A program made the translations under genes and the position numbers. The notes below the pieces were generated by a model. That model ran no database searches, had not been told where the DNA came from, and saw only the letters and a program-made list of their open reading frames with translations. 64,000 bases of DNA, from NCBI GenBank assembly GCA_043812795.1, contig JBDRLU010000042.1:13903-77902 (forward strand). The letters are read 5' to 3'. Below, one piece after another: positions 19,124 through 41,468 of the stretch; the stretch's first letter is position 1, and the number at the start of each line of letters is the position of its first letter. The stretch is from Chloroflexota bacterium. GTDB taxonomy: Bacteria > Chloroflexota > Dehalococcoidia > Dehalococcoidales > UBA2162.

Positions 19124-19151
19124 TTTCCGGGATAAGAGTTAAGGAGGGAAA

Positions 19152-19817: not shown

Positions 19818-19832
19818 AAGGAGATAGTGCAA

Positions 19833-20708
19833 ATGAGTTTGAAATCAGCTATTGAAGCCGGAAAATTTGTGGTTACTGCCGAAGTGGGCCCTCTGAAAGG
19901 GACTGACGTTACCGAACTTAATGAGGTGGGTGAACTGCTCAAGGGACGAGTGGACGCCGCTAACGCCACCGACCAGCAAAGCTCAGTAATGAGGCTGGGT
20001 TCTCTGGTAACCTGCCACCTGCTTAAGCAAAAAGGTCTTGACCCCGTGCTCCAGATGACTTGCCGCGACCGGAACCGCCTCGCCTTACAATCCGATTTGC
20101 TCAGTGCGGCGGTTCTGGGCATCAATAACGTACTGGCACTGACCGGCGATTTGCCGTCGCTGGGCGACCACCCTCAGGCCAAACAAGTCTATGACCTGGA
20201 TTCGGTTGGCTTATTGTGGGCCATCGGCCAGCTAAACGAAGGGAAGGATATGGCCGGTAACGCACTCCAGGGAAAGCCAGACTTCTTTCCTGGGGCCGTC
20301 GTCAACCCCGGTATCAATACCGAAGCCGGCTTTGAACTCCAGCTTGCCAAGATGGAAAAGAAAATCAATACCGGCGCCAGATTCTTTCAGACTCAGGCGA
20401 TTTACGAGCCAGAGAAATTCGCCAAATTCATGAAAAGGGCCGCCGAGTTTAAAGTGCCTGTCCTGGCTGGCATCATACCCCTCAAATCAGTTGGTATGGC
20501 CCGCTTCATGAACAAGAACGTGGCTGGTGTCTTTGTTCCCGAGCCGCTAATCCAGCAAATGAGTGCCGCCAAAGACAAGACCCAGACCGGGCTACAGATT
20601 GCCGCCGACCTGATTAAACAGCTCAAGGACATGTGCCAGGGCGTACATATTATGGCCATCGGCTGGGAAAAGAAAGTACCTCAGATTCTTGACTCAGCCG
20701 GGCTTTAG
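19833..20708 (+). CDS. metF: methylenetetrahydrofolate reductase (acetogen-type MetF)
   Basis: MetF-like TIM barrel sequence (VTAEVGPLKG, QMTCRDRN, LALTGD). ATG 19833 is better spaced from aaggag than GTG 19827. Confidence 0.85.
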   Translation: MSLKSAIEAGKFVVTAEVGPLKGTDVTELNEVGELLKGRVDAANATDQQSSVMRLGSLVTCHLLKQKGLDPVLQMTCRDRNRLALQSDLLSAAVLGINNVLALTGDLPSLGDHPQAKQVYDLDSVGLLWAIGQLNEGKDMAGNALQGKPDFFPGAVVNPGINTEAGFELQLAKMEKKINTGARFFQTQAIYEPEKFAKFMKRAAEFKVPVLAGIIPLKSVGMARFMNKNVAGVFVPEPLIQQMSAAKDKTQTGLQIAADLIKQLKDMCQGVHIMAIGWEKKVPQILDSAGL

Positions 20709-21406: not shown

Positions 21407-21513
21407 TGTCATTCTGAAGGAGCAAAGCGACTGAAGAATCCGTTTTCCCTCGAGTAAAACACGGGTTCTGCGCGGAGTTTACACTGAGCGTGGCGAATGT
21501 GCTCAGAATGACC
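21407..21513. repeat. ~105 bp element with terminal inverted repeats (gtcattctga ... tcagaatgac), family B
   Basis: Arms at 21408-21417 and 21503-21512. Same architecture as 55421-55514. Confidence 0.5.
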
Positions 21514-21549
21514 GACCATTGTTTCAGACAGTCCCGAGATGAGGATAGG

Positions 21550-22209
21550 GTGCCAACACGTAAAAGTAAACTACCGGAGATAAGTGGAGATGACCGGAAG
21601 CCGATAAAGGTTACGGCTATCGTTCTCGCTGGCGGTAAATATCTGCGCCTGGGCAAAAACAAAGCACTTGAAGTTATCGGCGGTACGAGCCTGATTGAAC
21701 GTGTTATCGAAAGGCTGCAGCCTTTCGCCAGCCAGATTTTAATCGTAACTTCGCCCGAGCTTGTGACGTTCCCTGTTTCTGAAAAAGCAAAAGCCCTCAT
21801 TGACCTTTATCCCGACAAAGGCCCACTGGCCGGTATTTACACCGGTCTGCAAGCAGCCCGCACGTCATATAGCCTTGTCGTCGCCTGTGATATGCCTTTT
21901 CTCAACCAAAGACTGCTGGGCTATATGATTGGACTGGCGCCTGGTTTCGATGCCGTAGTTCCCCGTTTAGGTGAGCGGATGATGGAGCCGCTTCATGCTG
22001 TCTATGCCCGGAGCTGCCGGGACAAGATGAAAGCCCGGCTGGAAAATGACCAGTTGAGCCTCAACTCTTTTCTCGGTACCGTGAAAGTAAGATACGTTGA
22101 ACGGGACGAATGCCAGCGCTTCGACCCACAGCTTCTGTCCTTCTTTAATATCAATTATCCGGCCGACCTGGACAAAGCGATTACGTTAGCCGTCCAAGAA
22201 AAGAAATAA
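21550..22209 (+). CDS. mobA: molybdenum cofactor guanylyltransferase (MobA)
   Basis: AIVLAGGKYLRLGKNKAL nucleotide-binding N-terminus. The 5' part of ORF 21490.. overlaps repeat B, so GTG 21550 is preferred. Start uncertain. Confidence 0.7.
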   Translation: MPTRKSKLPEISGDDRKPIKVTAIVLAGGKYLRLGKNKALEVIGGTSLIERVIERLQPFASQILIVTSPELVTFPVSEKAKALIDLYPDKGPLAGIYTGLQAARTSYSLVVACDMPFLNQRLLGYMIGLAPGFDAVVPRLGERMMEPLHAVYARSCRDKMKARLENDQLSLNSFLGTVKVRYVERDECQRFDPQLLSFFNINYPADLDKAITLAVQEKK

Positions 22210-22294: not shown

Positions 22295-22978
22295 GTGATG
22301 GAAAACACATCGTTCTTAGTTGCTTTTGGGGCCGGGCTGCTCTCCTTTGTCTCGCCCTGCATTTTACCGGTAATACCGGTGTACCTGGGTAGCCTTTGCG
22401 GCCCGGAAGTGTACCAGCCCCTGACGAGAAAAATTCGCTGGTCTATGTTTCTCCATTCCCTTGTTTTCGTCGCCGGGTTTTCTTTGATTTTCATTTTGCT
22501 CGGTGCAGTGGCCGGACTTACCGGCTTTACCATCAACCTGCACTCGAGGCTGACTCGCCAGATAGCCGGCAGCTTACTCATAATCTTCGGCCTGCTAATG
22601 ATAGCGAGCCTGAAAATACCCTGGCTAAATTATGAGAGACGGCTGTCCCCATCTCTGGGCACTACAACCGGTTATTTCCGTTCTTTTCTGACGGGAAGCG
22701 TATTCTGCCTCGCCTGGACGCCCTGTGTTGGCCCCCTATTGGGTGGCATCCTGGCCCTGGCGGTGAATTCAGCCACAGCCTGGCACGGTACCTATTTACT
22801 GGCCATATACTCCCTCGGTTTAGGGCTGCCTTTCATCATCGCCGGCATTGCTTTCGACGTAATCACGCCCGTCCTGAGACGCATCCGAAGTTATTCGACC
22901 GCCATTTATCTTTTCAGCAGTGTTCTGCTCATCACCATGGGCGTCCTGACGCTGCTCAACAAGCTAATTTGGCTTTAG
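22295..22978 (+). CDS. ccdA: CcdA/DsbD-family thiol-disulfide electron transporter
   Basis: 227 aa polytopic protein with SPCILP and WTPCVGP motifs. Confidence 0.8.
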   Translation: MMENTSFLVAFGAGLLSFVSPCILPVIPVYLGSLCGPEVYQPLTRKIRWSMFLHSLVFVAGFSLIFILLGAVAGLTGFTINLHSRLTRQIAGSLLIIFGLLMIASLKIPWLNYERRLSPSLGTTTGYFRSFLTGSVFCLAWTPCVGPLLGGILALAVNSATAWHGTYLLAIYSLGLGLPFIIAGIAFDVITPVLRRIRSYSTAIYLFSSVLLITMGVLTLLNKLIWL

Positions 22979-28033: not shown

Positions 28034-28606
28034 TCACAGCTTTGAAGCCTTAAGGCGTTTGGGTTTAAGGACGATGGCTGGTTTTGTTCTTTTTGAATAG
28101 GTGAAACCTTCGGCGCTGAGAATGTGACCATACTTGGCTTCAAGCTCAGATAATATACCCGCATCGAGTGCCTTGGTGGGGCAGGCCTCAACACAGACCG
28201 GTTTTTTCCCCTCCTCCCACCTATCGAGACAGAAGTCACATTTGTGCATCTTGGCGGCAGTCTCGGGTCCAAATTGCGGGGCTTTATAGGGGCACACCGT
28301 AAGACACTCGGTTCTGCAAGTATCTTTACCAAGACAGGCCTGAGTATCCACGACTACTATACCGTCTTCATCCCTTTTGGAAATAGCGTGAGTTGGGCAT
28401 GCCTTGACACAAATGGGGTCCAAGCAGTGGTAACAAGGCATCGCCATATAGCTGACGAATACATCTGGATAACTGCCCTTTTCATTGTAGAGCATTCTTA
28501 TCCAGTTCTCAGGTCCGGCAGGTATGTCATGCCAGTCTTTGCACGCTATCCTACAGGCACCACAGCCGGTACAGCGGGATTGGTCGAAATAGAAACCAAC
28601 CTGCAT
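28034..28606 (-). CDS. DmsB-like four-cluster Fe-S subunit (beta-1)
   Basis: 190 aa with CTGCGACRIAC, CYHCLDPICVKACP and CDFC...CVEACP. The third motif is atypical: CLGKDTCRTECLTVCP. Confidence 0.85.
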   Translation of the reverse strand: MQVGFYFDQSRCTGCGACRIACKDWHDIPAGPENWIRMLYNEKGSYPDVFVSYMAMPCYHCLDPICVKACPTHAISKRDEDGIVVVDTQACLGKDTCRTECLTVCPYKAPQFGPETAAKMHKCDFCLDRWEEGKKPVCVEACPTKALDAGILSELEAKYGHILSAEGFTYSKRTKPAIVLKPKRLKASKL

Positions 28607-28607
28607 T

Positions 28608-30797
28608 CTATTTGTCCTTTTCCTTACTTACCTGCACCACCACGGTATTCAAGGTGCATGCCCCTCCCTCAGTGTAGCCATCATCAGTCAGGACATTTGC
28701 ACAACCGCCACGGTCAATGCCTTCTTCATCAGGGTCATACCAGGCACCCTCGAAGATGCAGACCACTCCGGGCATGATGCGTTCCGTCACCCGGGCTGTG
28801 ATAGATAGCTTGCCCCGGTCATTGAAAACATAGACCAGGTCGCCATCGGAGATGCGCCTCTCTTTAGCGTCCACCGGGTTAATCCACATCCGGTGCGGTT
28901 CTATTTCTCTGAGCCAGTCCACATTGTCTAAACTGGAATGGACTCTGTTCTTGGCGTGGGGTGATATGAACTGGAGGGGATATTTTTGCCTCAGTGGGTG
29001 ATTCAGGTCCTCTCCAAGGCTAAAATACTTGGGTATAGGCGGACATAGAGGGTTATTTAGGTCGGCAACCCGTTGTGAATAGATTTCTATTTTGCCCGAA
29101 GGTGTGGGGAAGGGATTAACTTCTGGATTGTCGATCTGTTTCTTAAAGGCGACAAAGGGTTCAGCCAGCTTAATCCGAGCGACACCGTCGCGCTTGAATC
29201 CAGCATAATCCTGAATCGGTTTGCCTTCCGGGTTAATGGCCGACTTCTTGAGCCAATCTTCCTCTGAAATTTTATCGAAGTCTTCGAAGCCCAGCTTCGC
29301 TGCCAGTTCCTTCGCAATTTCCCAGTCCGACTTGCATTCTCCTGGCGGCTCAATTGCCTTGGTACTAAAGGTGACGTAAGGTCCTGAAGTCCACGGCCCC
29401 GTCAGGTCGTTGTGCTCTGGAAACAGGGTTACTGGTAGGAGGATATCGGCGAATTTCGCAGTCGGGGTCATGAACAATTCCGAGACGACAAAGAAATCGA
29501 GGCTGGCTAATGCTCTCACTCCCTTGTTAGTATTGCCGAGTTGATTCAAGTAGTTGCCACCGGCGAACCAGGCCATCTTGATGTCTGCCGGATATCCTCC
29601 GGCTTTGCCCTTCAGAAAGGCATCGAATATCTTGTTAGAGTGAATGCTATAGGCAAGCCGCGCTTTGAGGTCAACCACATTTCCTGCCGCGGCGCTGGCC
29701 TCAATGGGGTTCTTCACTCCTGGCGTTCCAGCAGCACGGACATTTCCCATTGGTATGCGCATCAGTCCCCCGGCAGCGCTGCCGCCATGCCGGCCGATGT
29801 TCCCGGTCATCGCGGTCAATGTGATAGCACAGCGGTTGAACTGTTCGCCCATGGCGCTTCGCGCCGGTCCATAACAGTCCATAAGTGCCGCCGGCTTGGT
29901 AGTCGCATATTCTCTGGACAGATATACTATCGTTTCTGCCGGGACTCCCGTAATTTTTTCTGCCCAGGCCGGGGTCTTCTTGATGCCATCCTCCTTACCC
30001 ATGACATAATCACTGAATCTATCAAATCCGACCGTGTATCGGTCAAGAAACTCTTTGTCGTAGAGGCCCTCCTGAATCATCGTGTAGGCCATGCTCACCA
30101 TCATGGCGGTGTCTGTACCGGGGCGAATAGGTATCCATTGGTCTGCCAGCAAAGCTGCAGTGTCATGGTAGCGCGGGTCAATGCAAATGATTCGTATGCC
30201 TGCCTCTTTGGCCTTGATGAGATTACCGATGGTGTCGGTACCATGAATTATTCTTACCGGGTCCCAACCCCACAGGATAATCAACCGTGAATTCAATAAA
30301 TCTTCACGGCTGTTGCCGACTAGAGTAGTTCCATAGCTGACCTGTGATGCCCATAAGCAACCTTCTGTGGATATATTCCCGTAGCGGGTTGTGTACCCGC
30401 CGAACATGGCGAGCAATCTACCCACGGCCTCCCGGCCGCTATGCAGCACGCCGTTATACCCGCCGCCAGTAAAGAAAATACTTGCATTGCCGTACGTCTG
30501 CTTAACGTGCTTCAATTGCCGGGCTACCGTTTCGAGAGCTTCATCCCATGTTATGCGCTCGAATTCACTTTTTCCTTTGGCGCCGGCGCGCTTCATCGGG
30601 TACTTCAGTCGGTCAGGGTGGTATACCAGGTGCCGCAATGCCCGGCATCTCAAGCAGGACCTGAGCTGTTCAGGTTCTTGGGCATCGTCTCCCTCGACTT
30701 TGATAATTTTCCCAGCTTTAATATGAAGCCTGAGAGGGCAGCGTCCGCCGCAATTAAACGTGGACGCTGTTCGGACAATTTCCTTCGTGTCGCTCAT
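28608..30797 (-). CDS. DmsA-family molybdopterin oxidoreductase (alpha-1), no Tat signal
   Basis: 729 aa. The C-terminus closely resembles DmsA (TPSGKIEIYSQRVADL..., PGVVCIFEGAWYDPD). The N-terminus is STFNCGGRCPLRLH. Confidence 0.85.
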   Translation of the reverse strand: MSDTKEIVRTASTFNCGGRCPLRLHIKAGKIIKVEGDDAQEPEQLRSCLRCRALRHLVYHPDRLKYPMKRAGAKGKSEFERITWDEALETVARQLKHVKQTYGNASIFFTGGGYNGVLHSGREAVGRLLAMFGGYTTRYGNISTEGCLWASQVSYGTTLVGNSREDLLNSRLIILWGWDPVRIIHGTDTIGNLIKAKEAGIRIICIDPRYHDTAALLADQWIPIRPGTDTAMMVSMAYTMIQEGLYDKEFLDRYTVGFDRFSDYVMGKEDGIKKTPAWAEKITGVPAETIVYLSREYATTKPAALMDCYGPARSAMGEQFNRCAITLTAMTGNIGRHGGSAAGGLMRIPMGNVRAAGTPGVKNPIEASAAAGNVVDLKARLAYSIHSNKIFDAFLKGKAGGYPADIKMAWFAGGNYLNQLGNTNKGVRALASLDFFVVSELFMTPTAKFADILLPVTLFPEHNDLTGPWTSGPYVTFSTKAIEPPGECKSDWEIAKELAAKLGFEDFDKISEEDWLKKSAINPEGKPIQDYAGFKRDGVARIKLAEPFVAFKKQIDNPEVNPFPTPSGKIEIYSQRVADLNNPLCPPIPKYFSLGEDLNHPLRQKYPLQFISPHAKNRVHSSLDNVDWLREIEPHRMWINPVDAKERRISDGDLVYVFNDRGKLSITARVTERIMPGVVCIFEGAWYDPDEEGIDRGGCANVLTDDGYTEGGACTLNTVVVQVSKEKDK

Positions 30798-30996
30798 CCA
30801 ATGTCTCCATAAGACTCACCCTGACTCATCACTATACTACCTCCTTCAGCCGCTGTCTTTTCGTGAGTTATAGAATTATAGAATAGTAATCGAGAATATT
30901 CCATCCCAAGAGATGATGAGATGGTTCCACTTAGACTGGCCTGTTTTAGAATACCTTGTATGTAGCAGGTACCACCTTAATTCCTAGTAGTCCGCT

Positions 30997-33114
30997 TTAC
31001 GCCTTATACACCTTGCACAGGAAAGAGCGCCAGGACTCGGAGCCGGTGTGCGGGTCGTAGGGCATGCCGCCGGTCAGGAAGTTGATATTGGACTCTTTGT
31101 AGCCATACTCCGGCGGGTCTTTCTCCGGGAACCACCAGCTATGCTGCGCGTTGACCACGCCCGGCAGGATATTGGTCGTCACCTTTGCCTTCTGCTGGAC
31201 TTTACCGCGGTCATTTTCAATCCAGACCCAGTCGCCATTCTTTATCCCCAGTGGCTTGGCGGTATCGGGGTGAATTTCAACCAGCGGGTCGGGGCAACGC
31301 TTGCGCAGGGAAGGTATTTGCCGGTCCTCGGAGTGGAAAAAGTGCTGAATCCGCGCCCCGCTGGTGATAATCAGCGGATATTTCTTGAATAGCTCCGGCG
31401 TCGAATAAGGACTTTCCGGCGGCTCGACGTAATACGGTAGCGGGTCGTAGCCCATCTTTTCCAGGGTGGTGAAGTAAAACTCGAATTTCCCGGAGGGCGT
31501 CTCGAAACCCTTCTCCTCGTACTTCCGGTAACGCATCTCACCCGGAAGGATGCCTATCTTCTTAAACTCCTCGAAGGTAATACCGCTATCCTTCAGCATC
31601 CAGTCGCAATACTCTCTCACCGTTTTCCAGGGGAAATATTTATTTAGTCCCAGCCGGTGCGCCAGGTCGATTAGAATTTGTTTGTCATCACGGCACTCGC
31701 CGATGGTGGCCAGCTTCTGCCGCGCCATGACGCACCAGACCATTTTCAGCCCGGCGACGTCATCGATTTCGAGCCAGCTGGCTGCCGGTAAGACGATATC
31801 GGCCATCTGCACGGTCGGGTTCATAAACATATCGGAGGCGAAGATAAAGTCAATCTTCTTCAAGGCACGGAGCATCTTTTCCGGTTCGCTGCGGGCGACC
31901 AGCGAGTTATTCCCCATAATCATGAGTGCCTTTACCGGATAGGGCTTTTCGGTCAAGGCGGCTTCCCAGAACTCGGCGGGATGCACCTGGTCGAGCACGC
32001 GGTATTTTTCAGCGCCGATTTTCTTCGCCCACGTTTCGGGAGAAAGGGTGGGGTAGGGCACGGTGGGGTTAATCTGGTCGTTCAGGTTGCCGACTTTCGC
32101 CGGGCGTACCCAGAAGGCATCGCCGCCGGGAACGTCGATATTGCCGGTAATACCGGAGAGAATATGTACCGCCCGGATGGTCTGGAAGCTATTGATGTTC
32201 TGGTCGATGGCCACGCCCCATTGCATGCAGGCCGGTTTAGTCGTCGCATAAACACGGGCGACTTCACGGATGGTATCGGCCGGAATCCCGGTAATATCGG
32301 CCATCTTTTCCGGCGGGTAGTCGGCGACTCTTGCCGCCAGCTTGTCGAAGCCCAGGCACCACTTCTCGACGAAGTCCTTATCGTAGAGCTTCTCTTTGAT
32401 GATGGTGTGCAGCATGCCCAGGGCGAGAGCGCCGTCGGTACCCGGACGGATTTGCAGGTGGTAGTCGGCTTCGGCCGCAATGGGTATCTTTCTCGGGTCG
32501 ATAACGATTAAGGTAGCCCCCCGCTTTATCGTCTGGGTAAGCTGGTAGCCACACATCTCGTCGGCGGCACCCGATTCGGCGATATTACAGCCCCAGACCA
32601 CCACGCATTTGGGATAAACACCGCCGAAACCGTAGTAGTCGCAGACCGGAAGAGTGCCGCCGGTCATCTTGCAGGCGGCAATTCTCGGCGAGTAACAGAT
32701 GTGTCCGCCGCCGGGCCGGTTCGGCGTGCCCAGAGCCAGCAAGAAACGACGGAGGAAGGTGGTGTAAGGCCGGGCCGTCCCGTACATACCGGCAATCGAT
32801 TCCGGGCCGAACTCACGCTTGAAGGAGCTGAGTTTACCGGCGATGGTATCCAGGGCTTCATCCCAGCTTATTCTTTCCCATTTGTTCTCTCCTCGCTCCC
32901 CCATTCTCTTCATGGGATACTTCAAGCGGTCGGGATGGTAGAGGAGCTCCACGGAGGCCCGACCTTTGGTGCAGATGTACCCTCGTGAACTGGGACAGTC
33001 CGGGTCACCGGTGGCCTTGACCACCCGGTCGTTTTTCAGATGTACCAGGAGACCGCAAATACCGTGACACATCCGGCACGCCGACTTAACTACCGCTTCG
33101 CCATCCTTCTCCAT
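30997..33114 (-). CDS. molybdopterin oxidoreductase (alpha-3), stand-alone, no signal peptide
   Basis: 705 aa with CRMCHGICGLLV...YICTKG 4Fe-4S motif and MopB-like sequence. Substrate unknown. Confidence 0.8.
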   Translation of the reverse strand: MEKDGEAVVKSACRMCHGICGLLVHLKNDRVVKATGDPDCPSSRGYICTKGRASVELLYHPDRLKYPMKRMGERGENKWERISWDEALDTIAGKLSSFKREFGPESIAGMYGTARPYTTFLRRFLLALGTPNRPGGGHICYSPRIAACKMTGGTLPVCDYYGFGGVYPKCVVVWGCNIAESGAADEMCGYQLTQTIKRGATLIVIDPRKIPIAAEADYHLQIRPGTDGALALGMLHTIIKEKLYDKDFVEKWCLGFDKLAARVADYPPEKMADITGIPADTIREVARVYATTKPACMQWGVAIDQNINSFQTIRAVHILSGITGNIDVPGGDAFWVRPAKVGNLNDQINPTVPYPTLSPETWAKKIGAEKYRVLDQVHPAEFWEAALTEKPYPVKALMIMGNNSLVARSEPEKMLRALKKIDFIFASDMFMNPTVQMADIVLPAASWLEIDDVAGLKMVWCVMARQKLATIGECRDDKQILIDLAHRLGLNKYFPWKTVREYCDWMLKDSGITFEEFKKIGILPGEMRYRKYEEKGFETPSGKFEFYFTTLEKMGYDPLPYYVEPPESPYSTPELFKKYPLIITSGARIQHFFHSEDRQIPSLRKRCPDPLVEIHPDTAKPLGIKNGDWVWIENDRGKVQQKAKVTTNILPGVVNAQHSWWFPEKDPPEYGYKESNINFLTGGMPYDPHTGSESWRSFLCKVYKA

Positions 33115-33208
33115 AATATGGAATCCTCCTCGGTCTCAGTAATGCTATTCTATGCAGCGGGGAAAAAGAAGTCAACGTTGAACAAGGACTAAACCTCTTG
33201 CGGACATA

Positions 33209-33238
33209 TTGACAAATAGCTGGCGCTGCGTTCATAAT
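33209..33238 (+). promoter_or_regulatory. promoter candidate for efp-epmA
   Basis: TTGACA (33209-33214), an 18 nt spacer, then CATAAT (33233-33238). Confidence 0.3.
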
Positions 33239-33283
33239 TTCCACTCAGAACAATAAAAATAAGCCTTATTGGAAGCAGGTGAT

Positions 33284-33850
33284 ATGGATATTGCCGGTGT
33301 ACACAAAAATAGTAAACTCCTCATCGATGGTGTCCCGTATGATGTCGTGGACGTCGATTTCGTCAAGCCGGGTAAAGGCCGGGCGATTTACCGTCTCCGG
33401 CTGAAGAACCTTGTCGATGGCAATACCCTCGACCGCACCTATCATTCCAGTGAAAGCGTCGAAGAAGCCCGCATTTCAACGGAGGAAATGCAATATCTAT
33501 ACCGGGATGGCGACCATTATGTCTTTATGAACACGGAAACTTTCGAGCAATTACCTTTGTCCGCCGAACGATTGGGCGACAAAAGCCACTTCCTGAAGGA
33601 AGGCACTACGGTTACGGTCATGATGCTGGATGATAAACCGCTCGATGTTATCATACCGGTCTTCGTCGAACTGGCCGTAGTCGAGACCGCCGCCACCACC
33701 CGCAAAGAGACTATTACTGCCCAGAACAAATCAGCCGTTCTCGAAACAGGCTACGCTATCGATGTGCCCACCTTTATTAAAGAAGGTGACATCCTCAAGA
33801 TAGATACCCGCACTGGAAACTACGTGGAGCGAGCCGGTCCCAAGAAATAA
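33284..33850 (+). CDS. efp: elongation factor P
   Basis: KLLIDGVPYDVVDVDFVKPGKGRAIYRLRLKNL contains the modified-Lys loop (PGKG). ATG 33284 preferred. Confidence 0.9.
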   Translation: MDIAGVHKNSKLLIDGVPYDVVDVDFVKPGKGRAIYRLRLKNLVDGNTLDRTYHSSESVEEARISTEEMQYLYRDGDHYVFMNTETFEQLPLSAERLGDKSHFLKEGTTVTVMMLDDKPLDVIIPVFVELAVVETAATTRKETITAQNKSAVLETGYAIDVPTFIKEGDILKIDTRTGNYVERAGPKK

Positions 33851-33854
33851 GGCG

Positions 33855-34781
33855 ATGGCAGACGAGCAAGAGCGTCTCGCCCGTATCAAGCCCAATCTGG
33901 AACGGCGAGCGCTGATTTACCAATCGACCCGGGCTTTCTTTCGGCGATGTCGCTTCCTTGAAGTCGAAACACCCGTCCGCATGTCCGCGGTCGCCCCCGA
34001 GTCCTACATTGTGCCCTTCGACAGCGAAGGCTGGTTTCTCTCCACCTCTCCCGAACTTTACATGAAGCGGCTCCTTGCTGCCGGCTACGAGCGGCTCTTT
34101 CAGATTAGCCATTGTTTCCGCAAGGGAGAATGCGGACGGCAGCATAATTCTGAGTTCGCCATGCTGGAATGGTACCGTTCTGGCGCCGGCTACCGGCAGG
34201 TGGTGCAAGACGCAGAGCAACTGGTCGCTATGCTGGCCGATAAACTTTTAGGTGGCTATTCATTAAAATATCGAGGGCAGATTATTGACCTTTCTCTACC
34301 CTGGCCGGAGATTACGGTACGTGACGCCTTTCTCCAGGCGGCTGGCTGGGACCCGGTGACCGAGCTTGACCCCGTACGGTTCGATACCGACCTCGTGGCC
34401 AAGGTGGTTCCCGGCTTCAGTCCCCACCGTCCCACGGTGTTACTCGACTACCCGGCAGCGATGGCCTCGCTGGCCCGTCTCAAGCCGCATGAACCGGCGG
34501 TAGCGGAACGGGCCGAAATTTTCATCGGCGGGCTGGAACTGGCCAACGCCTTCAGCGAGCTGACCGATGCCGCCGAGCAGAAAAAACGGTTTCAAGCTGA
34601 AATAAAGCAAATCCAGCAGGAAGAGAAACGGGAAGTTACTATGCCGTGGCCGTTCCTTGAAGCGATAGCCCATTTACCCGAGTGTGGCGGCATTGCCCTC
34701 GGCATGGACCGGCTGGTAATGCTTCTCTGCAATGCCACCTCCATCGATGAGGTGGTAGCTTTTACCGAAGATACGGCTTGA
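33855..34781 (+). CDS. epmA: EF-P lysine beta-lysyltransferase (EpmA/GenX, class II LysRS paralog)
   Basis: 308 aa with class II aaRS motifs (FRKGECGRQHNSEFAMLEWY, GIALGMDRLVM). Adjacent to efp. Confidence 0.8.
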   Translation: MADEQERLARIKPNLERRALIYQSTRAFFRRCRFLEVETPVRMSAVAPESYIVPFDSEGWFLSTSPELYMKRLLAAGYERLFQISHCFRKGECGRQHNSEFAMLEWYRSGAGYRQVVQDAEQLVAMLADKLLGGYSLKYRGQIIDLSLPWPEITVRDAFLQAAGWDPVTELDPVRFDTDLVAKVVPGFSPHRPTVLLDYPAAMASLARLKPHEPAVAERAEIFIGGLELANAFSELTDAAEQKKRFQAEIKQIQQEEKREVTMPWPFLEAIAHLPECGGIALGMDRLVMLLCNATSIDEVVAFTEDTA

Positions 34782-34802
34782 TTTTGATGGACCTTCCCTG
34801 AC

Positions 34803-34918
34803 CTCTTCTCCTGAAGGAGGGAGGGAATGAAACAAAAGAAGGGGGCAGTTTGCCCCCTTCTTTAAAATCTTCCCCTTCCCCTGGACTTAGGGGAAGGGGA
34901 CAAAGGGGTTAGGGTAAG
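34803..34918. repeat. intergenic repeat, family A variant (paired G/C-rich hairpins)
   Basis: gaagggggcagtttgcccccttc and cttccccttcccctggacttaggggaaggggac hairpins, then aaggggttagggtaag. Confidence 0.4.
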
Positions 34919-34990
34919 TAGTTGAAAACTGCCGACTTAATGAAGTAAATACGACTCAAACATACACAATGATTATCAGGTGAACTAACT

Positions 34991-35566
34991 ATGGTTAGCT
35001 TGTTCGAAGCCAAATTCAAAGAGTGGACGGAAGGAAAGGACCCGTTACAAGCCCGGATATCTATTTACGAGCATGTCAGAGATATTCCTTATGCCCTTGT
35101 TCCCGAGCTAAACGACCCGGAAAAATATGTCGATATCCTCAGGGTAGAGCGCGGCTCATGTACTCCCAAGCATTTTCTTCTCGGCAATATGTACCTGCGG
35201 TTGGGTCTGCTGGTACTGTATGTTGTTTATCCCTTCCGATGGAGTGAATTCGCTGATAATTATCCGTCCCGGCTTCGCCGGCTGGCGGAGGAGGCACCAC
35301 CAGGCCACCATCTGGCCTGTAAAGTAGAGATTGAGGGGAGACTGGTGCTGGTGGACGCTACGCTAGACCCGGTCTGGGCGCGTTACGGTTTTCTGGTCAA
35401 CCTGGAATGGGATGGCTACAGTAATACCGTGCTGCCGATGGAGCTTAGTGGTGACGAAGAGCTTTATCATCCCGGTGAAGCGCGTCTGATGAAAGCCAGT
35501 TACAGTGAAAAAACGCTTGCTTTCTATCGGGAACTTAACGCCTGGCTGGATGCGAGACGGGTCTGA
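34991..35566 (+). CDS. transglutaminase-like cysteine-protease-fold protein
   Basis: 191 aa. RGSCTPKHFLLGNMY (Cys), then HHLACKVEI and VLVDATLD (His/Asp), consistent with a C-H-D triad. Confidence 0.5.
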   Translation: MVSLFEAKFKEWTEGKDPLQARISIYEHVRDIPYALVPELNDPEKYVDILRVERGSCTPKHFLLGNMYLRLGLLVLYVVYPFRWSEFADNYPSRLRRLAEEAPPGHHLACKVEIEGRLVLVDATLDPVWARYGFLVNLEWDGYSNTVLPMELSGDEELYHPGEARLMKASYSEKTLAFYRELNAWLDARRV

Positions 35567-35587
35567 AGAGTATCATTCTCTTGACAC

Positions 35588-36919
35588 TCACAGGAATTTT
35601 TCGACGTCGGTGACCTGGGCCGGGGGCTTGGGGGGCGGAATCAGCATCATACTTATCGCGGAAAAACTGAGCATCGCCACAAACGCCGTGAAAGCATTAA
35701 GGTAGCTACCCGTGGTATCATACACCCAGCCGGTATAAATTGGCGCCACCACGATGAAGGGTGTGACCATCATGCGGGCAAAACCATAAATGGAACCGAA
35801 TGCCTTCCGCCCGAAATAGCGGGCCCTGATGACCGTATTCACCGGCGCGGCGATACCGTGAGCAAAGTAATAGAGAAAAAAGAAGAGGTAGGCCATGAAG
35901 ATGGACTGGTGGAGCAGGAAGACGGCAATGCCCGCAGCCTGCATTACGTACGCTCCCCCGATTAGAAAGCGTAGTTGGCCTTTTCTCAAATGGTCGGAGG
36001 CAAAACCGCCGATAAATCTCGCTGGCGTGCAGAGCAATCTGATGAGGGCCAGCGCGGCTGCAGCCTGCAGCAGGTCGATGCCCATATCGGTCAGGAAGGG
36101 CATGGCATGTAGAATCATCGTCGGTACCACCATGTCATGGCCAACGCTGGCGCCTATCAGTAACCAGTAGTTGGGTGTTCTCATTGCCTGGCGAAGGCTG
36201 AACTCGACTTCTTCGGCCTCGGCAGCGTATGCCACGCCTCGTTCGACCATCCGGTCTTTTTCAGCAGCCGCTTCGGCGGCGGTGGCGCCGTCAGGGAGTA
36301 ATCCGTAATACTCCGGTCGGTACCGCTTGAAACTAAGCAAGGCGAGTGGTATGCCGGTGACGGCCAGGGTTATTCCGCCGATGACGCAGGCTATCCGCCA
36401 GCCCTGCGTTACCGCCAGCCAGGCGACTAACGGCAGCATCACCACGCCGGAGAGTCCGGAAAATATCCATTTTAAACCAAGGGCGGAGCCTCTTTTCTTG
36501 ACGAACCAGTTGGTAATGGCCTTGTCGACAGGGATACCTGAGGAAATATTGATACCGGTAGCGGTTATTCCGCCCCAGACAATATAAAAAGCCCAGAGCG
36601 AATGAATGAAATTCATCAGGATAAGTCCGGTGACGACGAGGATAACGCCGGAGGTGACAATCCACTTCGGCCCGAACTTATCGGTAAGCCAGCCGGCAAT
36701 GGGTGCCTCGAAGCCTCCCTCGAAATTTCCAATACTCGAGGCAACTGACGTCACTGCCCGGCTCAGACCCAGGTCGGCGGCAATCATCTTGAAAAAAACG
36801 GACATGCCGGTGTAGTAGTAGCCGAACCCCCAGAGGATGATAAAGCCGCCGGCGAGAACCGTCCACCACCCGAAAAAGACCTTGGATAATTTTATTTTTG
36901 CCAAGGCTGCTCCTAACAC
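35588..36919 (-). CDS. MFS transporter
   Basis: 443 aa with about 12 hydrophobic segments and MFS-like loops. Substrate unknown. Confidence 0.8.
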   Translation of the reverse strand: MLGAALAKIKLSKVFFGWWTVLAGGFIILWGFGYYYTGMSVFFKMIAADLGLSRAVTSVASSIGNFEGGFEAPIAGWLTDKFGPKWIVTSGVILVVTGLILMNFIHSLWAFYIVWGGITATGINISSGIPVDKAITNWFVKKRGSALGLKWIFSGLSGVVMLPLVAWLAVTQGWRIACVIGGITLAVTGIPLALLSFKRYRPEYYGLLPDGATAAEAAAEKDRMVERGVAYAAEAEEVEFSLRQAMRTPNYWLLIGASVGHDMVVPTMILHAMPFLTDMGIDLLQAAAALALIRLLCTPARFIGGFASDHLRKGQLRFLIGGAYVMQAAGIAVFLLHQSIFMAYLFFFLYYFAHGIAAPVNTVIRARYFGRKAFGSIYGFARMMVTPFIVVAPIYTGWVYDTTGSYLNAFTAFVAMLSFSAISMMLIPPPKPPAQVTDVEKFL

Positions 36920-37003
36920 GTTGTCAGGAATAACGCCTATAATACATGAGTCGGCCTGTTAAAGCAATATGGTGATCGCTTATCTCAGCCATAATCGGCG
37001 TGT

Positions 37004-37032
37004 TTGACAATGTTTCGGTTTTTCTTTAGCAT
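37004..37032 (+). promoter_or_regulatory. promoter candidate for the alpha-2/beta-2/ggt operon
   Basis: TTGACA (37004-37009), a 17 nt spacer, then TAGCAT (37027-37032). Confidence 0.3.
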
Positions 37033-37073
37033 AAGGGCATCTATTAGCGATTGTGAGAGTGAGGGGGTCAGTG

Positions 37074-39260
37074 ATGGAACTTATTCCTACCGGCGGTTGC
37101 CACGACTGTGGCGCAAAATGCCCTTACAAAGTCTGGGTGGAAAATGGAGTTGCCAAACGCATCGAACCCTACGAAGATTTACGTCCCTGCATTCGTGGCT
37201 ATGCCTATCTGGAGCGGCTTTATTCACCCGAACGACTGAAGGCTCCCCTCAAACGGGTGGGGGAACGGGGCGAGGGTAAGTTCAAGGAAATATCCTGGGA
37301 TGAAGCCCTTGATACGGTGGCCGGTGAACTACTCCGCGTGAAGCAGACCTACGGCAATGCCGCCATCATGGGCGTGCTCGGCAGTGCTTATCAGGGCCAT
37401 CTGCATAACTCAGGGGTACTGCAACGGCTATTGAATATGTTCGGCGGCTACACCGGTCTCTGGGGGTCGATGTCCGCCGAGGCCAAAGCGGCCGCCTCCA
37501 CCATAACTTACGGCACTTTCAATACCGGTCACAGCCAGGACGACATTCTGGCGACGAAGCTGGTGGTGATGTTCGGAGCTAATCCGGCGGTAACGACCAA
37601 TGGTACCGATAGCACCTTCAGTCTCATTCGGGCCAAAGAAAAAGGTATCAGGTTCATTGCCTTCGACCCGCGTTACAGCAATTCCATCGCCATTCTGGCC
37701 GACCAGTGGATACCGATATATCCCGGCACGGATGCGGCAGTATTGCTGGCGATGGCCCATGTCATCATCACCGAAAACCTTTACGACCGCAAATTCCTCG
37801 ATACTTACACGGTTGGTTTTGATAAGTTTGCCGACTATGTTCTGGGTAAAGAAGATGGCCTGGCCAAGACGCCGGCCTGGGCGGAGCCGCTTACCGGGGT
37901 TGATGCTAAAGTAACCGAACAGGTAGCCCGCGAATATGCCACCAATAAGCCGGCAGTCATCCTTTCCGGGAATGCTCCCGGGCGTACGGCTTACGGCGAG
38001 CAGTTCCACCGGGCGACTCATGCTCTGGCGGCGATGACCGGTAATATCGGCGTCCATGGTGGCAGTCCGGCCGGCATGGGACGTCTGCCCGGCGGTGCTC
38101 CCGGCGAGAGGTTGAGCCTGGGACCTTCGCTGCCTACCGGCAAGAACGCCGTCGAAAAGGAAGACCTGGGACCGATGATGGGCAGCCCGGTGCTCGATTC
38201 CAACAAGAAGAACCGCTACCGGGTGAATTCCACCCAGGTGTGGGATGCCATTCTTAAGGGTAAGGCCGGCGGTTATCCCGCCGATATTAAATTACTGTAC
38301 GTCGTCATGCGTAATATCGTGAACCAGTACCCGAATACCAACAAGACCAGAGAGGCTCTCAAAAACGTGGAGTTTTTCGTCACTCACGACCAGTTTCTCA
38401 CACCCAGCGGTAAGTTTGCCGATATTATTTTACCGGTAACCACCCACTGGGAGAAGACTGATTTCCTGCGCTCGCACACGACCTATTTCATTCTGGCCAA
38501 TAAGGTCGTTAACCCCCTGCCCGGCAGCAAGAGCGACTTCGAAGTTTGTGCCGAACTGGCCAGGAGATTAGGCTTACCTGCCTACAGTACCAAGACGGAA
38601 GATGAATGGCTCAAAGAAATAATTGCCATGGGGCCGGATAGCTCTAAAGAGATTAAGGACTATGACCAGCTTAAGAAAGACGGGCTGCACCGGATGAAAC
38701 CGGTAGAACCCGTCGTGGCCTTCACGGAACAAATTAACGACCCCGAACATAACCGTTTCCCGACGCCATCAGGGAAAATCGAAATCTTCTCACAGCGGCT
38801 GGCTGACCTCAACAACCCGCTTACGCCACCGATTCCCAAATATATCCCGACCTGGGAAGGTAGAGAAGACCCGCTGTTCCAGCAGTACCCGCTGCAACTG
38901 GTCACTTTCCACGTTAAGACGAGGACTCATTCCACCTTCTATAATATCGCCTCGGTAAGAGAGCTGGACCATCGCACTACCCGCAGCGTCTGGATTAATC
39001 CGGTGGATGCGGAAAAGCGGGGCATTACCGATGGTGAAAAAGTCAGGGTCTTTAACGGACGCGGGGAGATGGTCATCGAGGCTTTTGTTACCAACCGGAT
39101 TATGCCCGGGGTGGTGGCTATCGGCGAAGGTTCCTGGTACCAGCCCGATGAAAACTGGCTCGACCATGGCGGTTGTGCTAACGTCCTGACTCGCGACCAA
39201 CCCTCGCCGATGGGGTCGCACGCGTCGAACACAAGTCTAGTCCAGGTGGAGAGGCGGTGA
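37074..39260 (+). CDS. DmsA-family molybdopterin oxidoreductase (alpha-2), no Tat signal
   Basis: Paralog of alpha-1 with a CHDCGAKCP...C motif and a DmsA-like C-terminus (SPMGSHASNTSLVQVE). ATG 37074 follows gaggggg. Confidence 0.85.
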   Translation: MELIPTGGCHDCGAKCPYKVWVENGVAKRIEPYEDLRPCIRGYAYLERLYSPERLKAPLKRVGERGEGKFKEISWDEALDTVAGELLRVKQTYGNAAIMGVLGSAYQGHLHNSGVLQRLLNMFGGYTGLWGSMSAEAKAAASTITYGTFNTGHSQDDILATKLVVMFGANPAVTTNGTDSTFSLIRAKEKGIRFIAFDPRYSNSIAILADQWIPIYPGTDAAVLLAMAHVIITENLYDRKFLDTYTVGFDKFADYVLGKEDGLAKTPAWAEPLTGVDAKVTEQVAREYATNKPAVILSGNAPGRTAYGEQFHRATHALAAMTGNIGVHGGSPAGMGRLPGGAPGERLSLGPSLPTGKNAVEKEDLGPMMGSPVLDSNKKNRYRVNSTQVWDAILKGKAGGYPADIKLLYVVMRNIVNQYPNTNKTREALKNVEFFVTHDQFLTPSGKFADIILPVTTHWEKTDFLRSHTTYFILANKVVNPLPGSKSDFEVCAELARRLGLPAYSTKTEDEWLKEIIAMGPDSSKEIKDYDQLKKDGLHRMKPVEPVVAFTEQINDPEHNRFPTPSGKIEIFSQRLADLNNPLTPPIPKYIPTWEGREDPLFQQYPLQLVTFHVKTRTHSTFYNIASVRELDHRTTRSVWINPVDAEKRGITDGEKVRVFNGRGEMVIEAFVTNRIMPGVVAIGEGSWYQPDENWLDHGGCANVLTRDQPSPMGSHASNTSLVQVERR

Positions 39261-39263
39261 AAT

Positions 39264-39842
39264 ATGCAACGAGGATTTTACTTCGACCAATCACGGTGCT
39301 CGGGTTGCGATGCCTGTACGGTAGCCTGCAAACAGTGGCATAACCATGACCGGCAGGTAGCTAACTGGAGGTGGTTGACGACCCTGGAGGAAGGCAAGTT
39401 TCCCGATGTATCGGTATCCTTTCTTACCCTGACCTGCCTGCACTGTGCTCATCCCGCCTGCATTGAGGCCTGTCCGGCCAATGCCATCACCAAAAGAAAA
39501 GAAGATGGGGTGGTATTGGTTGACCAGAATAAATGCCTCGGTAAAGAAGCCTGCGGGTCGCTGTGCCTGGAAGCCTGTTCCTACCAGGCCCCGAAGTTCG
39601 GCACCGAGGCTAATGCCAAAATGGAAAAATGCGATTTCTGTCTCGACCGCATCGACGCTGGTCAGGAACCGATGTGTGTCAGTGCTTGTCCCTTACGGGC
39701 GCTGGACGCCGGACCTCTGGACGAACTGAAAAAGAAGTATGGCACTCTGTCCAAGGTGCCGGGATTTGTTCCCGATGCCAAACTAGGGCCGGCCATTGTG
39801 TTTAAAGCGAAATCAGTTCCAGCTAAATCAAAGAGGAGGTAA
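39264..39842 (+). CDS. DmsB-like four-cluster Fe-S subunit (beta-2)
   Basis: 192 aa paralog of beta-1 with the same atypical third motif, CLGKEACGSLCLEACS. Confidence 0.85.
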   Translation: MQRGFYFDQSRCSGCDACTVACKQWHNHDRQVANWRWLTTLEEGKFPDVSVSFLTLTCLHCAHPACIEACPANAITKRKEDGVVLVDQNKCLGKEACGSLCLEACSYQAPKFGTEANAKMEKCDFCLDRIDAGQEPMCVSACPLRALDAGPLDELKKKYGTLSKVPGFVPDAKLGPAIVFKAKSVPAKSKRR

Positions 39843-39845
39843 TCC

Positions 39846-41468
39846 ATGAAGAACATCGTCGTCGCGCCACAGCCAAGGGCGGTCGAAGCCGGTATCGAGA
39901 TGTACCGGAAAGGCGGCAATGCCATCGATGCCGCTGTTGCCACCGGCTTTGCCCAGGGTGTCATCGACCCCACCAATACCTCCCTCGGTGGCATGGGTGT
40001 CCTCTCCATCTATCATGCCAAGTCCGGCGACCGGACGATGATTTCTTTTCATGGTAAAGCACCCCTCAATGCCACGCCGACGATGTTCGAGCCGATACCT
40101 GGACAGGTAGACGGCCCGATGTCCACCGGCACCTGGCTGGTCAAAGACTATGCCAATCAACTGGGTTACAAATCTATCACCGTACCCGGTGATTCGATGG
40201 CGCTGTGCCAGGCCCTCGCTAAATACGGCACCATACCCCTCAAGGAAGTGCTCCAGCCGGCGATAAGATATGCTAACGAAGGCTGGCGGGTAGGCGCCGA
40301 GCAGCGTCAGGGCTGGCTCCGTCCGACGCCGAGCGGCCGGCTGGATATTCTCACCCGCTTCCGGGCCACGCCGCCGGGGGCCAAACTTTACACCAAGAAT
40401 AATGGCCAGCCCCTCGATGTCGGCGACCTGGTGGTCAATAAAGACCTGGGTAATACCCTCAGCAAGATTGCCGAAGGCGGGGCGGATGTCTTCTACAAGG
40501 GTGAGATTGCCCGGACTATCGCCGATGATTTCAAGAAGCACGGCGGGCTGATTACCGAAAAAGACTTAAACCAGTACCAGACAAGGATAGAGTCGCCGCT
40601 GAAATCTACTTACCGCGGGTATGATTTGACCTCTTCGACACCACCGGCGGGCGGTCTGGTCGTCCTGCAGATGCTCAATATCCTCGAGGGCTTCGAGTTG
40701 AGCAAGATGGACCCGATGAGCGTCGAGTACGTCCATTTGCTGGCAGAAACGATGCGCCTTGCCTATTACGATATGAACCGTTACTTGGGCGACCCGGCCT
40801 TCGTCAAAATCCCGCTGGACAGGCTGCTCTCCAAGGAATACGCCGCCGAGTGCCGTAAGAAAATCAATCCGAACCAGAGAATGGAACTGCCCAAGATAGA
40901 TGAAGCTCCATCGGGGGAGACCACCCAGGTCACGGCCGTGGACGCTCAGGGCAACGCCGTTTCCCTGACCCACACGCTGGGGGCGGTTTCCGGTGTGGTC
41001 ACTGCCGGACTGGGCTTCATGTATAACGGCGCCATGCACCGCTTTAATCCCAATCCCGGTTTTGCTAATTCCATTGTCCCCGGCAAGAGCCGCGTCACCG
41101 GCATGTCCACGACCATGGTCTTCAAAGATGGCAAGCTGTTCATGTGCCTCGGCGCCCCGGGCGGACAGTCAATCATTTTGGGGGTTTTCCAGACTATCCT
41201 CAATGTTATCGACCACAAGATTAGTGTCCTCGAGGCGGTCTCCGTGCCGCGCTTCCACTGCGAAGGCGGTGCCATCACTCTGGAAAATAGATATCCCTCC
41301 TCGCTGTTAGACGAACTGAAGAAAAAGGGCCATCCCGTCGCCCAGAGTATGTACAGCTATGACGGCCAGCTCTCCGGTAACGTCCATGCCGTCGTCATCG
41401 ACCGGGCGGCTGATAAACTCACCGGTGCCGCTGACCCGCGCTCGCCGGGCACCGCGATGTATTATTAA
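39846..41468 (+). CDS. ggt: gamma-glutamyltransferase family protein, no signal peptide
   Basis: 540 aa with GGNAIDAAVA and the autoprocessing/catalytic Thr region GETTQVTAVD. Starts 3 nt after beta-2. Confidence 0.85.
   Translation: MKNIVVAPQPRAVEAGIEMYRKGGNAIDAAVATGFAQGVIDPTNTSLGGMGVLSIYHAKSGDRTMISFHGKAPLNATPTMFEPIPGQVDGPMSTGTWLVKDYANQLGYKSITVPGDSMALCQALAKYGTIPLKEVLQPAIRYANEGWRVGAEQRQGWLRPTPSGRLDILTRFRATPPGAKLYTKNNGQPLDVGDLVVNKDLGNTLSKIAEGGADVFYKGEIARTIADDFKKHGGLITEKDLNQYQTRIESPLKSTYRGYDLTSSTPPAGGLVVLQMLNILEGFELSKMDPMSVEYVHLLAETMRLAYYDMNRYLGDPAFVKIPLDRLLSKEYAAECRKKINPNQRMELPKIDEAPSGETTQVTAVDAQGNAVSLTHTLGAVSGVVTAGLGFMYNGAMHRFNPNPGFANSIVPGKSRVTGMSTTMVFKDGKLFMCLGAPGGQSIILGVFQTILNVIDHKISVLEAVSVPRFHCEGGAITLENRYPSSLLDELKKKGHPVAQSMYSYDGQLSGNVHAVVIDRAADKLTGAADPRSPGTAMYY

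Follow-up and report, generated by a model that had tools for sequence, protein, structure and literature searches.

Can genes for a DmsAB-like enzyme be read as respiration of dimethyl sulfoxide (DMSO) when they encode neither an export signal nor a membrane anchor, and with which partner would such an enzyme exchange electrons? The question is raised by a 64 kb stretch of a Chloroflexota genome of the Dehalococcoidales (contig JBDRLU010000042.1, positions 13,903 to 77,902; hereafter the window), in which two gene pairs, alpha-1/beta-1 and alpha-2/beta-2, lie on either side of a third molybdopterin enzyme, MopB-3. Metagenomic surveys that cover marine Dehalococcoidia, Chloroflexota and Asgard archaea routinely score genes of this clade under 'dmsAB = DMSO respiration'. 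We assign the architecture and the soluble topology of both pairs with high confidence. On balance, we lean towards the reading that they are soluble cytoplasmic DmsAB-type oxidoreductases with a molybdenum or tungsten bis(pyranopterin guanine dinucleotide) cofactor (Mo/W-bisPGD), wired to a soluble donor and probably reducing imported S-/N-oxide-like substrates. Our confidence in the substrate and in the direction of the reaction is low.

An earlier annotation made from the letters alone, here called the original prediction, had placed five open reading frames (ORFs) at this locus, and all five are intact at the positions it gave. The ORF list begins each frame at the first start codon past an in-frame stop, so its lengths are maxima.

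28608..30797, minus strand: alpha-1, 729-aa leaderless DmsA-like Mo/W-bisPGD catalytic subunit (Pfam, NCBIfam)
28034..28606, minus strand: beta-1, 190-aa DmsB-type four-cluster ferredoxin subunit (Fer4_11)
30997..33114, minus strand: MopB-3, 705-aa stand-alone acetylene-hydratase-like Mo/W enzyme (match to PDB 2e7z)
37074..39260, plus strand: alpha-2, 728-aa leaderless DmsA-like catalytic subunit (735 aa if read from a GTG at 37053)
39264..39842, plus strand: beta-2, 192-aa four-cluster ferredoxin subunit (Fer4_11)

The Pfam families Molybdopterin and Molydop_binding were matched by all three large proteins and Fer4_11 by both small ones. Within the pairs the genes are closely packed, with 1 base between the alpha-1 stop and the beta-1 start and 3 bases between the alpha-2 stop and the beta-2 start.

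Topology and relatives of the two pairs

The original prediction had both pairs lacking a Tat (twin-arginine translocation) signal, and the start sites bear this out. An in-frame TGA seven codons upstream of the alpha-1 ATG leaves no room for a leader. At most seven residues (MRVRGSV) could be added to alpha-2 from the GTG; the ATG at 37074, which follows a better Shine-Dalgarno sequence, is most likely the start. The N-terminus of MopB-3 is MEKDGEAVVKSAC, and MopB-3 and both betas begin a few residues ahead of their first cysteine motif. We looked for an RR motif and for a hydrophobic stretch in all five proteins and found neither. The alignment of alpha-1 with E. coli DmsA opens at DmsA precursor residue 54, just past the Tat leader, and the NCBIfam DmsA profile is matched from profile position 42-48 onward only.

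For a membrane anchor we used Pfam on the ORFs of at least 150 aa in the 64 kb, minus two that are fully overlapped (51.9-52.5 kb; 60869-61378), and a hydropathy scan of 18-48 kb. Neither search found an NrfD/DmsC-type subunit. The polytopic proteins that they returned were a major facilitator superfamily (MFS) transporter and a DsbD/CcdA-like protein only, neither of the NrfD/DmsC type. No gene for a DmsD chaperone lies nearby.

The same arrangement is found in the relatives. We compared the window with 37 related loci and with one canonical control. None of the 41 alphas called in the related loci and the window has a Tat motif, and among full-length database homologues a Tat-like motif occurs in 0/119 for alpha-1 and 1/113 for alpha-2. 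A same-strand polytopic membrane gene after beta is present in none of the 37 related loci, whereas the control (L043, from Rikenellaceae, the single canonical locus recovered) has both a Tat leader and a YnfH-like seven-transmembrane gene directly after beta. A hidden leader, a nearby anchor and tight clustering with characterised periplasmic reductases had been named beforehand as outcomes that would speak against soluble, cytoplasmic enzymes; none of them was found, and the proposal stands: all subunits are free of Tat and Sec leaders, the window encodes no anchor, and the close relatives are alike.

The best NCBIfam model for the alphas was TIGR02166 (DmsA/YnfE), with 685 bits for alpha-1 and 673 bits for alpha-2 (the cut-off of 777.7 is not reached). 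Alpha-1 is 39% identical to E. coli DmsA, and its scores against solved structures are 339 bits for TorA, 325 for DorA and 217 for pyrogallol transhydroxylase. The databases hold hundreds of homologues (63-85% identity for alpha-1 and 50-67% for alpha-2), all about 710-760 aa long. Close relatives (44-71% identity; one genome per species scanned) came only from metagenome-assembled genomes (MAGs), of Dehalococcoidales/Chloroflexota, of Desulfobacteraceae and other Thermodesulfobacteriota, and of Asgard archaea (Promethearchaeota, Thor- and Helarchaeota). The clade is widespread among anaerobes of sediments. DmsA-like genes of Asgard MAGs were reported earlier to cluster with those of Desulfobacterota and Firmicutes (PMC10100899).

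Neighbour-joining distance trees, built without support values and used for coarse placement only (one of them with 149 sequences), place both alphas in one leaderless clade, each in a subclade of its own, and away from the clade of E. coli DmsA, YnfE and YnfF. The nearest neighbours of the leaderless clade include a few Tat-bearing proteins (45-49% identity). What the related loci have in common is an alpha with its beta; in much of the alpha-2 subclade it is just an alpha. Compared over the full length, the two alphas show 48% identity, and the two betas show 53%. Given these identities and the different subclades, the 'duplicated pair' of the original prediction holds as paralogy and not as a recent event: the two pairs are best read as old, anciently diverged paralogues.

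The same genes of marine Dehalococcoidia, described in 2014-2016 and now in wide use as markers, were proposed to encode DMSO/trimethylamine N-oxide (TMAO) reductases (PMC4959651), and a 2015 survey suggested that dms operons without dmsC encode soluble reductases (PMC4464133). The clade as a distinct leaderless, anchorless lineage appears not to have been described in the accessible literature.

Some relatives depart from the simple pair. In four Asgard MAG loci (L016, L018, L019 and L025), two divergent leaderless alpha/beta pairs surround a conserved trio of genes for a 3-hydroxyacyl-CoA dehydrogenase, an NMO-family flavoprotein and a TetR regulator, with an HpaB/4-hydroxybutyryl-CoA-dehydratase-like gene downstream. 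Ten DmsA-like proteins of 914-976 aa (P0249, P0253, P0254, P0261, P0263, P0264, P0266, P0274, P0275 and P0294) carry a leaderless N-terminal extension of ~200-240 aa that, judged by eye, resembles a TorD/DmsD-type chaperone. Another protein (P0252, 1357 aa) starts with a sequence that by eye is pyridine-nucleotide-disulfide-oxidoreductase-like.

The iron-sulfur wire and its electron partner

TIGR02951 (DmsB) was the best NCBIfam model for the betas (171 bits for beta-1 and 165 for beta-2; the cut-off of 214 is not reached), and beta-1 is 48% identical to E. coli DmsB. Both betas keep all 16 cysteines, enough for four Fe-S clusters. Compared with E. coli DmsB, their cysteine groups I, II and IV are canonical and only group III deviates (CLGKDTCRTECLTVCP in beta-1 and CLGKEACGSLCLEACS in beta-2, against CIGCRYCHMACP in E. 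coli DmsB). In beta-1 this group is C91-x5-C97-x3-C101-x3-C105-P. Set side by side, the group reads C-L-G-K-D-T-C-R-T-E-C-L-T-V-C-P here and C-I-G-C-R-Y-C-H-M-A-C-P in DmsB, that is, C-x5-C-x3-C-x3-C instead of C-x2-C-x2-C-x3-C. The second group III cysteine of DmsB is replaced by Lys in the window beta and by Asn in most relatives, and a new cysteine stands four residues on. The original prediction had noticed this atypical third motif in both betas; it proved to be clade-wide, occurring in 120/120 of the closest beta homologues. The last cysteine of the motif is followed by P or S.

In NarH and DmsB, the first three cysteines of group III ligate the cluster FS4, and the second of them (Cys102 in DmsB; Trp in NarH) sets whether a [4Fe-4S] or a [3Fe-4S] cluster is formed. 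By the title of Rothery and Weiner (1996), this cluster is reportedly linked to the menaquinol site. The chain ends at FS4, beside the partner subunit (PMC8840923). The remodelled motif would thus sit where the membrane partner was lost.

In seven related loci (L009, L011, L013, L017, L033, L038 and L040) the beta subunit is 667-685 aa long, and its third cysteine motif is interrupted by an inserted module of ~470 aa that matches Fer4_20 and Pyr_redox_2. The layout is ...VVVDREKC-x5-C-G, then about 470 aa, then RCLNCAGHLCKDACPY... The coordinates of three of these fused betas are:

L009, 3230-5248: fused beta
L017, 10208-12211: fused beta
L033, 3935-5992: fused beta

In the PDB the insert matched best the NfnL-like domain of Bfu-type NfnA/StnA (PDB 9bov and 8oh5), with 351 and 325 bits, followed by NfnB of NfnSL with 257 bits. 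Like other NfnL/GltD-type modules, it retains the two glycine motifs for dinucleotide binding as well as the cysteines of Fer4_20; unlike them, it lies within a DmsB-type ferredoxin beside a real Mo/W enzyme. In the neighbour-joining tree, the alphas that go with fused betas make up one subclade within the alpha-1 group, with L033 as a separate case. The NfnL-like domain of NfnABC binds NADPH next to FAD and passes single electrons into an Fe-S chain (PMC11829005). A module of this kind, built into beta, points to NAD(P)H as the electron partner, via a flavoprotein, in at least part of the clade. The window betas are without the module, unlike the seven fused relatives, and for such short betas we infer that the partner is ferredoxin or an unlinked flavoprotein.

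At the other end of the chain, the cluster FS0 of the alphas differs between the pairs. Alpha-2 has the motif C9-x2-C12-x3-C16...C45. Alpha-1 has S12-x3-C16-x3-C20, with Ser where DmsA has the first FS0 cysteine. The statement of the original prediction that the alphas start directly at the Fe-S motif therefore holds for alpha-2, which keeps C-x2-C-x3-C, and not for alpha-1. The first position is without Cys in 109/119 full-length alpha-1 homologues (Ser in 95; Thr, Ala, Gly or Val in the rest), and most of these 109 have an extra cysteine three residues past the fourth ligand (C48-L-R-C51). Across 206 homologues, the lost first cysteine and the extra cysteine covary strongly (97/4 versus 20/85; Fisher p = 8.5e-33, with kinship ignored), which suggests that one FS0 ligand has moved in the alpha-1 subclade. 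The FS0 ligands of alpha-1 are probably C16, C20, C48 and C51; the relocated ligand is a difference from DmsA. The ligand swap at FS0, the clade-wide remodelling of FS4 and the NfnL-like insertion at the FS4 site all appear to be undescribed in the accessible literature.

Active site, substrate and competing explanations

The original prediction had proposed to identify the metal ligand by structural alignment. In alignments with the sequences of solved structures, the ligand is Ser in both alphas, aligned with that of DorA and TorA (Ser143 in N-I-S-T-E of alpha-1; the Ser in S-M-S-A-E of alpha-2). Serine ligand, FS0 in alpha, four cysteine groups in beta and the order alpha-beta are all features of DmsABC/YnfEFGH, the best-scoring family, whose members reduce S-/N-oxides or selenate; these have the Tat leader and the DmsC/YnfH anchor that the window pairs do not. 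BisC, TorA and DorA also have a Ser ligand, and BisC is cytoplasmic too (448 bits to the BisC family), but they have neither FS0 nor an Fe-S partner subunit.

Sixteen positions separate the leaderless clade from the DmsA/YnfE clade. The context of the serine is I/M-S-x-E in the window alphas and Y-S-S/T-A in DmsA/YnfE; the Tyr that precedes it in DmsA is not present in the leaderless clade, and two residues past it stands a clade-specific Glu (E145 in alpha-1). This Glu aligns with Ala207 of the E. coli DmsA precursor, which is Ala178 in older numbering, a position that affects substrate specificity. Tyr114 and Trp116 of DorA correspond to Gly and Tyr in the window alphas (by eye from the alignment). 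The signature S-x-E-G past the ligand is common to the clade and pyrogallol transhydroxylase (S175-W-E177-G) and is not found in DmsA, TorA or BisC. In detail, the predicted alpha pocket is neither DmsA-like nor transhydroxylase-like.

Clues to the substrate come from transporters. The MFS transporter of the window is divergent from alpha-2, and the protein that it matches best, though weakly, is an L-lactate MFS transporter. The genes most like alpha-2 (66-67% identity) sit between TRAP-TAXI and MFS transporters, the latter 30% identical to that of the window; these loci have a second leaderless alpha and no adjacent beta. Transporters beside alpha-2 and its closest relatives hint at an imported small polar substrate, and we regard the window MFS transporter as a candidate importer of the alpha-2 substrate. 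A gamma-glutamyltransferase (GGT)-family gene follows beta-2. None of the other loci examined has a GGT homologue next to alpha/beta, and because the linkage is unique to the window we did not use it to infer function.

The mechanism towards which we lean would run as follows. The sequence shows an architecture in which each alpha has a Ser-ligated metal centre plus FS0, and each beta the cysteines for a wire of four Fe-S clusters. By topology, relatives and homology, the enzymes would not be seated on a quinol-oxidising membrane subunit; instead, the distal FS4 would have been rebuilt for exchange with a soluble cytoplasmic partner, either ferredoxin or an NAD(P)H-oxidising flavoprotein, a part that in some close relatives would be played by the NfnL/GltD-like NADPH-FAD module inserted in beta at the FS4 site. 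Electrons would probably flow in the reductive direction, removing an oxygen atom from a small substrate of the S-oxide/N-oxide type that neighbouring transporters bring in, and the enzymes would serve as a non-respiratory electron sink or in scavenging. A putative S-/N-oxide reductase role is our best guess.

Several findings weigh against this reading. Alphas and betas score below the curated DmsA and DmsB cut-offs. The pocket differs from that of DmsA by the Glu after the ligand and the lost Tyr, so the substrate class of DmsA cannot be transferred. The genes around the clade vary, and a good number are of acyl-CoA metabolism, a pathway with no obvious link to S-/N-oxides. No GltD/NfnL-like gene that could encode the donor of the window pairs was found in the window or beside the short-beta loci. 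The assignment of group III to FS4 goes by homology to NarH/DmsB. Every close relative retrieved comes from a MAG, and the clade is without any characterised member. Finally, DmsA paralogues of Salmonella have been reported to be molybdenum-cofactor-independent sulfate reductases acting at an Fe-S cluster (PMC13524816), which makes family membership a weak guide to the reaction.

We think it unlikely that the pairs run oxidatively, that is, as water-dependent hydroxylases or dehydrogenases, or as non-redox transhydroxylases, on an organic substrate, with electrons passing via beta to ferredoxin or NAD(P)+. Pyrogallol transhydroxylase (PDB 4v4c) and resorcinol hydroxylase resemble the window pairs as cytoplasmic, anchorless alpha/beta enzymes in which the Ser ligand is followed by x-E-G, and the S-x-E-G signature is the point at which the clade sides with the transhydroxylase against DmsA, TorA and BisC. 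Nevertheless, the transhydroxylase is matched with no more than 217 bits by alpha and 50 bits by beta, far below the scores of alpha-1 against DmsA/YnfE (685 bits) or TorA (339 bits), and its subunits are built differently: an alpha of 875 aa without FS0 and a beta of 274 aa, against alphas of 729/728 aa with FS0 and betas of 190/192 aa in the window. Of the transhydroxylase residues His144 and Asp174, which are active-site residues in the published structure, the first is Gly in both alphas and the second Ile in alpha-1 and Met in alpha-2; Ser175 and Glu177 alone are common, with the register set by eye. The same kinds of organisms also carry a distinct clade of transhydroxylase size (alpha 840-890 aa, beta 270-290 aa). 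The oxidative explanation draws its remaining strength from three sides: among alpha/beta enzymes that are cytoplasmic, anchorless and Ser-ligated, none but this type has been characterised (PMC10100899); the NfnL-like module could in principle work both ways; and catabolic neighbours recur. The catabolic genes are those for acyl-CoA dehydrogenases, 3-hydroxyacyl-CoA dehydrogenase, MaoC, HpaB/AbfD-like proteins and CoA ligases; they recur in some lineages, as do NMO-family and MBL-fold genes. MoeA is often found upstream of clade members.

It is quite improbable that the enzymes are cytoplasm-facing but membrane-bound and quinol-dependent in the manner of NarGHI, with an anchor gene at another place in the genome. 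NarGH sets a precedent, as a complex iron-sulfur molybdoenzyme that faces the cytoplasm from an anchor, the beta subunits keep all 16 cysteines and our view was of 64 kb of the genome. However, a polytopic gene on the same strand after beta is missing from all 37 related loci and present in the canonical control, the FS4 motif, which faces the anchor, is the very part that has been remodelled, and a soluble NADPH-FAD module at the FS4 site in seven loci is hard to square with docking on an anchor.

We give equally little weight to a housekeeping role in repair or scavenging, in which the pairs would act like BisC on free methionine sulfoxide, biotin sulfoxide or similar compounds and not as a catabolic electron sink. 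A wire of five clusters would be excessive for a repair enzyme, and the genomes carry multiple divergent copies (two in the window; two pairs in several Asgard loci) with transporters adjacent. BisC is indeed a cytoplasmic, NADPH-linked, Ser-ligated S-oxide reductase (PMC10100899), DmsABC is reported to reduce methionine sulfoxide and other S-/N-oxides in pathogens, and the NADPH-fed variant would suit a biosynthetic or repair role. The GGT-family gene after beta-2 might be added to these points, but its linkage is unique to the window.

A bolder idea, which we consider a long shot, is that the clade uses high-potential oxides (DMSO, TMAO and related compounds) independently of quinone, with the FS4 site as an NfnL-type docking or insertion point and a flavin that bifurcates electrons. 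In the fused form, the flavin would have the Mo-directed chain of clusters on one side and its own two [4Fe-4S] clusters on the other, and NADPH would reduce a high-potential oxide and ferredoxin together; the short betas of the window would use the FS4 site with a separately encoded partner. If this were true, Wood-Ljungdahl-dependent Dehalococcoidia, Desulfobacterota and Asgard archaea would gain low-potential reducing power from S-/N-oxide reduction.

Membership of the transhydroxylases themselves, which the original prediction had left open under 'hydroxylase/transhydroxylase-type enzymes', is not supported, given the presence of FS0, the subunit sizes and the missing His144 and Asp174.

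Soluble enzymes without a link to quinone, which we favour, would not build a proton gradient in the way of DmsABC, and the roles that surveys infer would have to be revised to those of an electron sink, of scavenging or of coupling to ferredoxin or NAD(P)H. A concrete, testable way to the electron partner is opened by the remodelled FS4 motif together with the NfnL-like insertion; if correctly read, the two would exemplify how complex iron-sulfur molybdoenzymes are rewired by modules.

MopB-3 and other genes of the window

MopB-3 had been described as a third, stand-alone molybdopterin enzyme. It does stand alone, with 705 aa, but it is not a generic member of the superfamily: it matches acetylene hydratase (PDB 2e7z) over nearly its full length (E=1e-121, 410 bits). 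It is like the enzyme of Pelobacter acetylenicus in its FS0 motif (C13-x2-C16-x3-C20), in its Cys ligand (the Cys141 equivalent), and in being monomeric and leaderless. In place of acetylene hydratase Asp13, the catalytic residue beside the second FS0 cysteine, it has His17; Ile14 is replaced by Gly and Ile142 by Tyr. The acetylene hydratase subfamily cannot do without Asp13 and is alone in having it, and a role of Cys141 has also been described (PMC12096430). With the defining Asp13 absent, MopB-3 is predicted to be acetylene-hydratase-like and not an acetylene hydratase proper. It belongs to a C-H-G subgroup, a motif common to the acetylene-hydratase-like (AH-like) genes of other loci. No homologue of MopB-3 lies beside alpha-1/beta-1 even in the nearest, 85%-identical relative (L001); since the adjacency is not conserved, we treated MopB-3 as an independent unit. 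It has its own Shine-Dalgarno sequence and its own promoter-like site.

At least nine more distant loci have an AH-like gene of ~745 aa immediately ahead of a transhydroxylase-sized pair, with the C-H-G motif and with 40% identity to MopB-3 (around 4000-11000 in each of L046, L047, L054, L070, L072, L073, L075, L076 and L078). The order in these clusters is AH-like MopB, often a gene of ~109 aa, alpha (840-890 aa) and beta (270-290 aa), and the hosts are Desulfobacterota, Syntrophaceae, Dehalococcoidia and a Clostridiales MAG.

The original prediction had also considered that one of the three enzymes might substitute for the formate dehydrogenase missing from the Wood-Ljungdahl operon. No formate dehydrogenase gene was found in that operon (1684-20708). 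The substitution itself is not supported for any of the three proteins, because none has the Sec/Cys-His pair of FdhF: Sec140-His141 of FdhF is aligned with Ser-Thr in alpha-1, Ser-Ala in alpha-2 and Cys-Tyr in MopB-3, and both alphas are Ser-ligated.

The other features of the window that bear on the locus are:

30794..30832, minus strand: upstream open reading frame (uORF) of 12 codons (V/M-SQGESYGDIG) with a strong Shine-Dalgarno sequence GAAGGAGG, read from the sequence
35588..36919, minus strand: MFS transporter of the oxalate/formate/lactate-transporter type (MFS_1), divergent from alpha-2
39846..41468, plus strand: leaderless gamma-glutamyltransferase-family protein (TIGR00066, 420 bits with a cut-off of 357.85; G_glu_transpept)
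21490..22209, plus strand: MobA-like nucleotidyltransferase for synthesis of the bis(molybdopterin guanine dinucleotide) cofactor (NTP_transf_3, E=6.5e-34)
22295-22978: DsbD/CcdA-like polytopic protein (Pfam and hydropathy)
1684-20708: Wood-Ljungdahl operon with CooC, FTHFS, RACo, two FolD, AcsD/A/B/C/E, [NiFe] hydrogenase and MetV/MetF

The MobA-like gene lies 5.8 kb from beta-1, in agreement with the ~6 kb given for mobA by the original prediction. The TGA of the uORF overlaps the ATG of alpha-1 (ATGA), and the uORF is kept in the 85%-identical locus L001 (9966-10004) with one synonymous change; it may have a role in translational coupling or encode a leader peptide. Promoter-like sites were seen at 33175-33147, ahead of MopB-3, and at 37004-37032, ahead of alpha-2. 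An Rfam scan near the three molybdoenzyme genes found neither a molybdenum cofactor riboswitch nor any other family. The GGT-family gene starts 3 bases past beta-2 and is probably co-transcribed with it, and genes of the methylmalonyl-CoA pathway adjoin beta-1. The wider window also holds shikimate-pathway genes, the gene for EF-P and that for its lysyl-tRNA-synthetase-like partner, which we read as EpmA-type. Between the EF-P/EpmA-like genes and the MFS transporter is an ORF of 191 aa (34991-35566, plus strand) with no Pfam or NCBIfam match.

Within the Wood-Ljungdahl operon, two FolD paralogues stand in tandem (7213-9016), and the small and large subunits of the [NiFe] hydrogenase (16713-19123, plus strand) lie between an AcsE-like methyltransferase and MetV/MetF. 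A bacterial RNase P RNA of class A (315 bits) is encoded at 59236-59605 on the plus strand.

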